NCBI GenBank assembly: GCA_963727445.1
Contig: CAVSGI010000010.1
Location: forward strand, 64,001 to 128,000
DNA length: 64,000 bases
Direction: 5' to 3'
Origin: an uncultured delta proteobacterium
Lineage (GTDB): Bacteria > Myxococcota_A > Polyangia > Polyangiales > B10-G4
Below are positions 26,901 to 29,900 of the stretch, in pieces. Every line of letters starts with the position of its first letter. The first letter of the stretch is position 1. The position numbers were made by a program.

Positions 26901-29900
26901 GACGACGGCGTCTGGGGACAGAAGAGAGCGGGACCCGCGGGTCAGGCCGGCTCCCAGCCGCCGCCGTGGGCGCGGCGCCGGTGCTCGGGGCGTAGCTCGC
27001 TTCGGGCGTCCGGGCTCAGGAGCTCACAGGGGTCGAACCAGTGGACCGTGCGGGCGCGGCCGCGGAGCGGCGGGAGGTCGCCGCGAAATTCGTCGGAGGT
27101 GGGACAGCGGTCCTTCCAGAGCGCCTCCGGCGTGGGGACCTCGTCGAAGGCCAGGACTTCTTTGATGCCGCCGTTGCAGTTGGTGCTGACGACGAGGACC
27201 GAGCCGGGGAGCGCTCCCACCTCCTTCACCCGCAAGACGAGGTCGTGGTGAAACTCGCCCTGCTGGTGATGGGAGAGCAGCTCGAAGCCGCCGAAGCGCG
27301 TACGAAGGATCTCCAAAAGGGCGCCCAGCGACAGCGCCTCCGCCAGCTCGGACAGGGTCTCCACGCGCATCCTACGACGCCCGCGGGGCCGTTATTCCGC
27401 CCACGTGATCCACATCAGGCCGTGCGGGAGGTCCCGGGGGGTTGAGGCGGTCGTGGGGTGCTGGGGGGTGGGAGCACGCATCGGTTCCGCGGCGCTTGCA
27501 GCTGTGTGGTCAATTCTCGTCGACGGTTCTCGACCGCCGATGCCCCCCGGGACCCTCCCGTGCGGCTGGTCGTGCTTCTCTCAGAGCCCGATGCGGCCGA
27601 GGGGCTGGACGGTCACCTCGGGGGCCAGCTCCTGGTAGCTGAGGACGCTAGCGTCGGGGAGGTCGACCTCGAGGAGACGGCGGAGGAAGCGGCGGACGTC
27701 GGGCTGGGTCAGGATCACCGCCGCGGCGCCCGGCGCTGGGAAGCACTCCCGGCGCACGGCGGCGATCACGTCCTTGGCCATGTCCGGCGGCATCGCGAGA
27801 TACGCGCCGGTGGCGGTTCGCTGGATGCTGTCGCGCACCGTCTCCTCGATGAGCGGGTCGAGGAGGTAGACAGACAGGACGCCGCCCTCGGCGTGCTGAT
27901 GCGTGAGCTGCCGCTTCAGCGCCCCCCGCACCAGCTCGGCCAGGGTCATCGGATCCTTTTCGTTCGGCGCGTAGGTGGCGAGCGCTTCCAGGATCTCGCG
28001 CAGGGGGCGGATCGAGACGCCCTCTTCGACCAGCCGGCGCAGCACGTCCGTGAGCAGGTGGAGCGACACCGGCTTCGGCACCACGTTGCGGACCAGCGCC
28101 GGATAGGCGCGCTCGAGCTGGTCGAGCATCGCCTGCGACTCCTGCAGGCCCACCATGTCGTGGGCGCGCAGCGCCACGGCGCGCTCGAGGTGACGCCCGA
28201 TGGCCTCGCCCGCTCCGTAGCAGGCGATGCCTTCGCTCTCGAGATGCTCGCGCGCGTCCTCGGCGACGAGGCACGCCGAAGCGCCGGTCACCGGATCCAC
28301 CGCCTCGTCCGCGTCGATGCCGAGGGCGCGGACGGTCTCGGCATCGCGCAGACAGAGCAATCGATCCGCCGAGAGCGTGCCCCCACCCACCGGGATCTCT
28401 TGAATGGCGATGGCGTAGGTGTCGGGCGGAAGATGCGGCGCCCGCCGCGCGCGCACCCCGGGCAGGGCGATGCCCAGATCGAGGAAGAGCGTGTCCCTCA
28501 GGCTCGGGATGGTCTCCTCGAGGAGCGGGCCGCCGCCCGCGTCGTCGAGGAGCGCGTCGGAGAGCGCTGGCCCGAGGTCGACCGCCACCGGGATCACCAC
28601 CGGGACCATCGCGCGCTTGGCGCGTGTCTCCCGCGCAGCTTCCAGGCGAACCTGGGTGTCCTGGCTGGTCTCGCGCCCGCTCTTGTTGGCGACCAGGCGC
28701 CGCGAGACGACGAAGAAGACGACCGACAGGACCAGGAAGGGGACGGCGGGCAGACCCGGGATGATCGCCAGCGCCAACAGGAAGACCGAGCCGATGGTGA
28801 GGGCGCGCGGATCACCGAAGACCTGCCGCGCCACGTCCGAGCCGAGGGAGGCGTCCTCCTCTTCCGAGGAGACGCGCGTCACCACCAGGCCGGCGGCGGT
28901 GCTGATGAGGAGCGCGGGGATCTGCGAGACGAGCCCGTCACCGATGGTGAGCAGACCGTAGGTCTCGAGGGCATCGGTAGCGCTCATGTCGCGCATGCCG
29001 ATGCCGATCGCCAGACCGCCCAGAATGTTGATCACGGTGATCACGATTCCGGCGATGGCGTCGCCCTTGACGAACTTCATGGCGCCGTCCATGGCGCCGT
29101 AGAATTCGCTCCCGCGCTGCAGAGCGTGGCGCTGCTTGCGCGCTTCGTCCTGAGAGATCGCTCCCGAACGAAGCTCGGCGTCGATGCTCATCTGCTTGCC
29201 CGGCATGGCGTCGAGGGTGAAACGCGCGCCCACCTCCGCGACGCGCTCGGAGCCCTTGGCCACCACGAGGAACTGGATGAGCGTGAGGATCGCGAAGACG
29301 ATCGCGCCGACCACGTAGTTGCCCCGCACCACGAAGTTGCCGAAGGCGCTGATGACGTCACCGGCGTCGGCCTGGAGCAGGATCAGACGCGTCGACGAGA
29401 CGTTGAGGGCGAGGCGATAGAGGGTCGTGATGAGCAGGATGGTCGGGAAGGAGGCGAGGCTCAGCCCGCTATCGATGTAGAGGCTGACCAGCAGGAGCAG
29501 CACGGCGATCGAGACGTTGCTGGCGATCAGCACGTCGAGGAGCGGCGTCGGCAGCGGGACGATCATCATCCCGACCATCAGCACCACCAGCGCGGCCAGC
29601 GTCGCGTCGGCGTAACGGCGCGCGGCGCTGTGCGTCCCCCCTGCCTTCGACATCATCAGGCCGCCGATGTTGCCCTCATCGGATGGCTGGTGTCGAGGGC
29701 GGCTTCCGGAGGCGGCGGCGCGGCAGGAGGCGCGCGAGGAGCCCGACAGCGAGCACCAGCGCGAGCGTCAGCGTCGCCCAGCGCGGCGCGTAGGGGCCGA
29801 GGTAGAGGTGCAGGACCACCAGCGCCCCCGCGGCGTAGGAGAGCCGATGGAGCGGCTTCCAGAGGCGCACCCGCAGCGCACGGGTGAGCCGGGGGAAGGA

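Follow-up and report, generated by a model that had tools for sequence, protein, structure and literature searches.

The Myxo non-flagellar type III secretion system (NF-T3SS) is described by Abby and Rocha (2012, PMC3459982) as confined to the Cystobacterineae and as lacking SctF, a tip and a translocon, and a further report places T3SSs mainly in the Myxococcales (PMC10196010). The latter gives T3SS(2) of Myxococcus xanthus, MXAN_5643-5654, here termed the short locus. The needleless T3SS* of Myxococcus (MXAN_2434-2464) is presented as having SctD, as lacking a needle and translocon, and as acting in prey lysis together with Kil/Tad (PMC12075869, PMC10433427). For the multi-locus T3SS of Chlamydia, PMC3459982 proposes that constitutive expression allows scattering. 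The myxobacterial loci compared below are from Archangium, assigned as "short" or "long" by gene content, and stand in for M. xanthus itself.

The Polyangiales set described here resembles the Myxo short locus in belonging to the same clade, in having no secretin of its own and in its SctI, SctJ, SctQ and SctRSTUV, and the Archangium short locus begins with a close homologue of a needle-like candidate found here. It differs in that the short locus is one operon, whereas 12 loci are occupied here, and in having SctN, SctL and SctO, unlike the Archangium short locus as fetched. With T3SS* it shares TPR chaperones and weak needle-like matches, and the long-locus order in Archangium (I-J-K-L-N-O-P-Q-fliO-R-S-T-U...V) fits the pairs still joined here (fliO-R, S-T, K-L and P-Q); however, T3SS* is clustered, and no co-loss with Tad was seen here. 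Orthology to T3SS* thus appears less supported than orthology to the short locus. The Chlamydia system occupies at least four loci, three of them with core genes, and has its own secretin, whereas the core genes here lie mostly alone or paired among housekeeping genes in a free-living bacterium. As in canonical injectisomes there are a rod, an SctU switch motif and candidates for a ruler, tip, TPR chaperone and translocators; unlike in these, no SctC or SctD was identified and FliO, a flagellar assembly factor, is kept. The set occupies 12 loci and was found across Polyangiales families and in other classes, so that neither a restriction to the Cystobacterineae nor a single locus applies.

sctV and its surroundings

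The window analysed comprises 64,000 nucleotides (positions 64001 to 128000 of contig C10 of the genome studied, G000). Its sole T3SS gene is sctV (window positions 27581..29656, minus strand), which encodes the 691-aa export-gate subunit of a scattered non-flagellar T3SS with all cytoplasmic subdomains kept. The ORF is a full-length match to FHIPEP in Pfam. Its product passed the TIGR01399 SctV model (772 bits; cut-off, 692), failed the FlhA model (661 bits; cut-off, 772) and branched on the non-flagellar side, in agreement with the genome-wide survey's note, which had named it a non-flagellar SctV. Within 7.5 kb of sctV there is no further T3SS gene, and the neighbours are unrelated. A ferric-reductase-like membrane gene (29676..30287, minus strand), co-oriented with sctV and ending 19 bp short of it, probably belongs to the host operon from which sctV is transcribed; no sigma28-like site was present 5' of sctV (score, 3.9). 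Downstream is a 142-aa ORF with no Pfam match (26942..27370, minus strand), which nothing in the ORF and Pfam annotation of the window ties to a T3SS.

Core genes at unlinked loci

Nine further T3SS loci had been claimed for G000, and all were present: sctU (C10:3509-4615), sctN (C15:331638), sctJ (C14:201603), fliO-sctR (C21:542627), sctS-sctT (C21:203583), sctQ (C21:718513), sctL (C2:117726), sctO (C13:337903) and a sigma28-like gene with sctI (C3:61173-62195). SctR, SctQ, SctS and FliO of G000 passed their NCBIfam cut-offs (SctS also passed that of FliQ), while SctN, SctJ, SctT, SctL and both pieces of SctU scored highest against Sct models, below cut-off; the matches of SctI (E = 2e-4) and SctO (E = 3e-5) were weak. 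Every named T3SS gene is single copy in G000, which has no flhA or fliP paralogue, and SctJ, at 261 aa, is not of FliF length. The core proteins SctJNQRSTUV are therefore nearer to injectisome than to flagellar homologues, making this a non-flagellar T3SS. The possibility that these are scattered flagellar export genes was rejected, as flagellar clusters, where relatives carry them, are separate and branch apart from the Sct genes, and the tree places the Polyangiales copies on the non-flagellar side.

The G000 assembly consists of 27 contigs, is 85.6% complete and contains frame breaks, which could suggest that the scattering is an artefact of assembly or binning. The same pattern was seen, however, in single-contig genomes with genes megabases apart, as the survey's note had held. 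In G038 the genes lie at 1.96 (U), 5.48 (J), 5.75 (S), 5.80 (V), 6.25 (L), 7.98 (R), 9.10 (Q) and 9.78 Mb (N); in G105 at 0.44 (U), 0.48 (S), 0.92 (R), 2.59 (N), 4.84 (Q), 5.65 (V), 7.84 (I), 8.33 (J) and 8.75 Mb (L); and in G032 at 0.21 (R), 0.78 (N), 1.44 (U), 1.65 (Q), 3.22 (L), 3.46 (J), 3.89 (S) and 3.92 Mb (V). Single-contig G031 shows the same scattering, as do G096 and G083. Housekeeping neighbours are moreover conserved across families, and an artefact can practically be dismissed. The single frame break reported in sctU of G000 was confirmed; it is likely an assembly indel, since alaS and a kinase gene in the window are broken too.

The recurrence of housekeeping neighbours noted previously was similar at the loci examined here. 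With names assigned by eye, a kinase gene precedes sctJ at 22 of 27 loci, a site-2-protease-like gene follows sctL at 17 of 22, dnaJ adjoins sctN at 14 of 29, priA follows sctU at 13 of 24, and recR precedes sctV at 15 of 35, G000 not being among them. sctT adjoins sctS in 18 of 29 loci, and positions of T3SS genes are common to up to 11 families. In G000 the core genes abut unrelated genes, with stop-start overlaps at sctJ and sctO in addition to the short gap at sctV.

Distribution, co-retention and selection

An SctV match at an E value of 1e-20 or below was found in 107 of 131 genomes of the order, a tally that includes flhA-only genomes and G100, a genome used for no other result; second SctV matches (approximately 41%) were flhA within intact flagellar clusters. 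A panel of 43 genomes was assembled from 30 sctV-positive genomes (mostly well assembled and including G000) and 13 of the 24 sctV-negative genomes, nine of these 13 being from one genus, g8. Non-flagellar partners were present in the 30 sctV-positive genomes as follows: R and S in 30, N in 29, J and Q in 28, U in 26, L in 24 and I in 20. No U, N, S or I was found in the 13 sctV-negative genomes, and R, J and Q occurred in G017 only, so that the set is jointly missing from 12 of the 13. Matches to the sctL profile in the T3SS-less genus g8 (five of six checked) were rejected, as all lay, by eye, among V/A-ATPase subunit genes. Values of dN/dS ranged from 0.04 to 0.60 in all 32 pairwise comparisons, and the set is under purifying selection. 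We consider it very probable that this is a real, ancient and maintained T3SS of the Myxo clade, encoded as 12 or more separate pieces.

A gene in the SctK position

A fast-evolving gene (C2:117028-117726) overlaps the start of sctL in G000, and a gene in this slot, picked by eye, precedes sctL in 24 of 24 sctL loci. Five independent homologues of like length were found for its product. When folded with SctQ, the protein scored 0.78, compared with 0.00 for the best of three controls; of 157 solved complexes, 116 reach the mark applied to this score, as do two of 215 mismatched pairs. The prediction runs agreed in at least 75% of contacts, with a partner pLDDT of at least 47, and the predicted contact is centred on G122-G123 of SctQ, which we take to resemble the FliM glycine motif that binds FliG. 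The pass may stem from likeness to solved FliM-FliG or SctQ-SctK pairs. The K-slot protein had no family match, no match in the Atlas and none in Foldseek, and its profile was not significant against G139, G200 or FliG. VIA gave a best Z score of 6.0; FliG appeared at Z 5.8 (rmsd, 3.5; 45 aligned) and Z 4.7 (rmsd, 7.3; 106 aligned), among unrelated helical folds. The gene product is predicted to bind SctQ and is a candidate for a previously missed part of the core.

Phylogeny and break-up of the operon

Trees were built from SctV (139 sequences, six short ones dropped) and from concatenated VRSTU (56 taxa) using FastTree and IQ-TREE, the IQ-TREE supports being aLRT values on a tree from an unfinished ML search. 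The Polyangiales copies were monophyletic in SctV and VRSTU trees (0.99 to 1.0; aLRT, 99.9), on the non-flagellar side. In the VRSTU trees they grouped with the long and short loci of Myxococcia, outside the canonical systems (FastTree, 0.994), and the Myxo clade had an aLRT of 98.7 without G131; the SctV-only tree did not recover a single Myxo clade. A group of Polyangiales, f42 and the short locus received an aLRT of 95.5 and a FastTree support of 0.937, with long branches. By these trees, the Polyangiales set is assigned to the Myxo T3SS clade, nearer to the short than to the long locus of Archangium. A tree from R, N and S recovers most families, which is consistent with vertical descent.

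Intact T3SS operons were identified in Archangium MAGs. Closed G139 has four loci (I-J-K-L-N-O, fliO-RSTU, Q and V), G200 has I-J apart from K-L-N, and in G180 sigma-I-J-K-L-N are contiguous; in Polyangiales the genes are single or in pairs. The pairs that remain joined (fliO-R, S-T, K-L, P near Q and sigma-I) are ancestral neighbours. Gene order across the relatives thus points to a stepwise break-up of one operon. The arrangement had been proposed as an inherited feature of the Polyangiales; it is inherited order-wide, but the gradient begins outside the order.

Joint loss of the rod and the switch motif

The proposal in the survey's note that the small unannotated gene beside the sigma gene is sctI finds support in less fragmented relatives, where the gene sits directly before sctJ. 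The NPTH motif of SctU is intact in all 20 sctI-positive genomes. None of the 10 sctI-negative genomes has an NPTH-bearing non-flagellar SctU, six having an SctU without NPTH and four having no non-flagellar SctU match, and the joint losses fall on at least four separate branches. A 25-sequence SctI profile gave a best E value of 0.028 in nine of the 10 sctI-negative genomes (control, 6e-20), while G096 was checked for sctI near its sigma gene only; these searches scored 82 or 150 candidates in large genomes, that is, part of them. In G023 and G032 sctI is cleanly deleted: the kinase gene that in G000 comes after sctI stands there immediately after the sigma gene. In G213 it is sctJ that comes immediately after the sigma gene. 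SctV residues from about 432 to 485 were also deleted in several lineages, independently of the loss of sctI and NPTH. The set therefore exists in two states, with rod and switch (20 of 30) or without both (10 of 30). The survey's note described one full set in the genome; of the 30 sctV-positive panel genomes, 10 have neither sctI nor a switch-competent SctU. An interaction of SctI with SctU and autocleavage at NPTH during switching are reviewed in PMC5073101. That every one of the 20 rod-bearing genomes keeps the motif intact implies ordered secretion.

A sigma28-like promoter motif and the sigma gene

Upstream of sctI is the sigma28-like motif CGCAAC-N14-nnCGATAA. A matrix was built from 15 sites, none of them in G000; the resulting count of 17 of 19 sctI genes is circular for every genome but G000, in which sctI scored 19.9 and sctU 18.3. 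The motif precedes seven of 25 sctU genes, compared with a background of 1%, all seven being in sctI-positive genomes, and is wanting before the other 18. Zero or one site each was found before V, R, fliO, S, N, J, Q, K and the sigma gene, and none before the P-like gene of G026, sctI of G180, sctU of G139 or the four Archangium sites tested. Textbook sigma28 words were not enriched 5' of core genes. Genome-wide, G000 has 84 sites scoring at least 17, compared with 36 to 48 when wrong spacers were used, and thus about half are expected by chance. Many sites lie 6 to 9 or 19 to 40 bases before a start.

The motif also precedes comEA-like, yraN, radA, YhgA-like and recN genes and a gene (score, 22.3) that is presumably comF-like, named from a sequence signature. 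The window holds a copy of the motif (19667..19694, minus strand; score, 15.7), approximately 31 bp before a recN-like gene of the SMC family (17968..19635, minus strand), a candidate member of the motif's regulon. Because comEA- and comF-like genes, radA and recN carry the motif too, it is not T3SS specific. FliA-type sigma factors read a GCCGATAA-like -10 element. The sigma protein had FliA_WhiG as its best model, far below cut-off and in two matched stretches. Its gene lies within 1.5 kb of sctI in 17 of 20 cases, and its product would be the natural reader of the motif. An orthologue (42 to 53% identity) is kept in 11 of 13 T3SS-less genomes. The gene had been listed as part of the T3SS set; it does adjoin sctI, but it survives without a T3SS and is not specific to it. 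The genes comEC, comM and recA have no strong motif site, and no dprA signature was found. As the sigma gene is kept without a T3SS and the motif skips comEC, comM and recA, a DNA-uptake regulon is a lead rather than a result.

Candidates for the ruler, needle, tip and translocon

The motif also marks candidates for exported parts, all of whose family matches fall below the Pfam cut-offs. A possible SctP-like ruler is encoded at C21:720651-721283, 1 kb before sctQ. In G026 its homologue (E = 8e-7; FliK, E = 0.01) immediately precedes sctQ, and that in G139 is weak. In HHalign the P-like protein gave less than 1% against two SctP-slot proteins, and PF02120 found nothing in four of four Polyangiales.

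A needle-like candidate of 143 aa (C9:318219-318650) had 89 matches including itself. It matched HrpF at E = 0.03, below the Pfam cut-off, and an Atlas neighbour cluster at 0.90 has PF09392 on 11% of its members. In both Archangium short loci its profile matched the gene that immediately precedes sctI (E = 2e-25 and 4e-24); it weakly matched long-locus genes (E = 7e-4 and 0.035) and, in a canonical locus, an ORF with PF09392 at E = 0.002 (profile E = 0.13). Homologues lay beside sctI at two of 80 metagenome loci, and the motif preceded 51 of 70 metagenome homologues, compared with one of 58 downstream. The model begins with a disordered stretch and has a long helix towards the C terminus. No needle was found by PDB sequence search, and Foldseek gave nothing; in VIA only generic coiled coils were retrieved (Z of 6.2 or below), and HHalign of the family against a 171-aa long-locus protein reached only 44%. 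PF09392 itself found nothing in five of five genomes.

A putative tip-TPR-SseC-like operon (C25:about 32100-34850; promoter motif score, 20.6) comprises, in order, a 56-aa ORF, a 224-aa paralogue of the needle-like candidate, a short TPR-like ORF, a 358-aa ORF containing two hydrophobic stretches, and an ORF in the position of a second translocator, the TPR-like and last ORFs being judged by eye; we take this to be the usual translocon order. In G119 a short ORF and tip-like, TPR and SseC-like genes follow the same order (motif site, 13.1), so that it is common to genomes of two families, f1 and f15. The SseC-like protein of G119 matched PF04888 at E = 2e-6 (28.1; cut-off, 30.2); across the genome its top match was the G000 protein (E = 7e-5), which in turn matched an SseC-positive gene in a canonical locus (E = 3e-4). 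Searches with an LcrH profile gave mostly generic TPR matches, the best of which in G119 and G139 flank needle- or tip-like genes.

No dedicated secretin was identified in G000 (85.6% complete), whose three secretin genes lie, with neighbours named by eye, in pilMNOPQ, Tad and T2SS clusters. Matches to SctD cover the N-terminal FHA part alone, and the positive control, G248, was no better. The Tad secretin is present in 27 of 30 sctV-positive and 10 of 13 sctV-negative genomes, and co-loss of Tad with the T3SS was accordingly rejected. The survey's note had reported no secretin, needle or translocon. The first part stands, but with needle and translocon candidates at further loci the remainder is, on these sequence matches, probably wrong.

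Proposed model and alternative explanations

The reading that we favour, with a probability of about 0.6, is a two-tier injectisome with a core and an inducible needle and translocon rather than a needleless relic. A vertically inherited Myxo-clade operon would have broken stepwise into at least 12 loci, on nine contigs in G000. The first tier would comprise the R-S-T-V gate with FliO, the SctJ ring, SctQ with the SctK-slot adaptor, and the SctN-L-O ATPase complex, encoded beside or inside housekeeping operons and probably expressed constitutively; such expression would remove the need for clustering. The second would comprise the rod SctI, the switch SctU, the SctP-like ruler, the needle-like subunit and the C25 translocon-like operon, all probably switched on jointly, along with genes for DNA uptake and repair, by the sigma factor encoded beside sctI. 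Induction would be followed by assembly of a rod and filament, by the switch at SctU and by formation of a pore in a cell with which contact had been made; a borrowed secretin or some other channel would provide the passage across the outer membrane. In several lineages the rod and the switch would later have disappeared jointly, and what is left there would be a simpler or a decaying exporter. A fuller version, in which a complete, secretin-borrowing injectisome with a needle-like filament, a tip and an SseC-type pore, in approximately twelve unlinked pieces, has its exported parts sigma-induced with DNA-uptake and recombination genes (comEA- and comF-like genes, radA, recN and yraN) and so links contact killing with DNA capture, is tentative and would have to be called somewhat improbable.

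That the Polyangiales T3SS is instead a needleless system is rather unlikely. It would account for the lack of a secretin of its own, the blank PF09392 result in five of five genomes, the weak family matches and the core kept without rod or switch in 10 of 30 genomes, G000 carries a Tad cluster, and a partnership of Kil with T3SS* is reported (PMC12075869 and PMC10433427). The Tad secretin, however, is not lost with sctV, the tip-TPR-SseC order recurs in G000 and G119, the place immediately ahead of sctI in the short locus is taken by a needle-like gene, and the intact switch motif is tied to the rod in every rod-bearing genome. The needleless reading retains some weight because the second-tier homologies are individually weak. 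Slow decay of T3SS or flagellar export remnants, or co-option of single genes for separate jobs, is improbable. Decay would fit long branches and the lack of U, J, Q, L or N in G021, G031, G072 and G098, the partial set in G017, complete loss in genus g8, NPTH loss and the repeated SctV deletion, but dN/dS is below 1 in every comparison, including that of the rod-less pair G038/G096, retention is all or none, gene positions are shared among families, and intact flagellar clusters are separate and branch apart. For rod-bearing lineages decay is largely refuted.

Significance of the scattered set

A literature search, drawing mostly on texts outside subscription and supplements, returned no scattered Polyangiales T3SS and no Myxo SctF. 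T3SS detection relies on gene clustering, and a scattered system would thus be overlooked. The SctK-slot gene, the coupled loss of sctI and NPTH, and the shared promoter motif with the loci found through it are new here. The set offers a dated series in nature that runs from a single operon down to lone genes, and in which clustering appears replaceable by housekeeping read-through for the core and by one promoter type for the rest. That sctI and the SctU cleavage motif have repeatedly been lost together lends comparative support to the rod-switch model. Should the needle- and SseC-like genes hold up, they would bear on how myxobacterial T3SSs deliver anything; as a needle-like homologue is present in the short locus of Myxococcia, the idea is testable in a genetic model. 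If it is true, the Myxo systems, taken as a needleless intermediate between flagellum and injectisome, possessed homologues of needle and translocon from the start, which divergence and lack of linkage had hidden, and the sequence of steps accepted for that transition would change.

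Genes around sctV and frame breaks in the assembly

Upstream of sctV and a ferric-reductase-like gene lies a 732-aa ORF (window 30284-32482) that contains haem-binding-like CxxCH words and for which no Pfam match was found. Frame breaks split alaS and a Ser/Thr kinase gene (window 21462-24123 and 32518-34333), as they do sctU and gspD outside the window; in all four genes, the breaks are probably indel errors of the G000 assembly.

Further genes carrying the promoter motif

In the genome under study (G000), the sigma28-like promoter motif also lies 6 to 7 bases upstream of four transposase-like genes, classed as RAYT-like by eye, and one YhgA-like gene (C10:251341, C9:567586, C27:412225, C10:487589, and C13:483540). 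Mobile genes may have been wired into the same regulon as the other motif-bearing genes; alternatively, they may carry the motif along. Some of its strongest copies precede four short coiled-coil ORFs of 85 to 106 aa (C11:168903, C25:98592, C15:158928, and C8:404176). The motif is also found with a 334-aa protein of no family (C20:159346-160350; L534:7350-8351), whose Pro/Ser/Thr-rich start resembles that of SctI; this protein is a candidate secreted substrate.

Related secretion and flagellar loci

In T3SS*-like clusters (the long locus of Archangium) and in G139, a relative with less broken-up T3SS gene order, needle- or tip-like genes are flanked by TPR chaperones (L014:8658-9170, L015:7374-8585, and L389:2123-2941), with that of L014 matching the needle-type family PF09392 at an E value of 0.16. 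NPDH replaces the NPTH switch motif in SctU of the long locus, G200, and G251 (L014, L015, L328, and L416).

In many genomes of Polyangiales, flhA, fliP-Q-R, flhB, and fliA stand together in a flagellar cluster that looks intact (L120-L133, from G105, G021, G004, G011, G051, G122, G029, G106, G056, and G094); by eye, three of these clusters hold additional flg/fli genes. Their flhA and other Myxococcota flhA form one clade.

G017 (L198 and L445) retains sctQ, together with a weak match to sctJ and a partial one to sctR, whereas V, N, S, and U were not found; this may reflect T3SS loss under way or an incomplete assembly. Outside Polyangiales, lone, diverged sctV and sctR genes occur in families f47, f25, and f23 (L296, L327, and L350 in G213; L298 and L333 in G239; L294 and L331 in G132; L292 and L332 in G238). 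G213 encodes a 421-aa SctV and has sctJ directly after the sigma gene, with neither sctI nor an SctN match found. These three families possibly represent independent atomisation and reduction of the T3SS.
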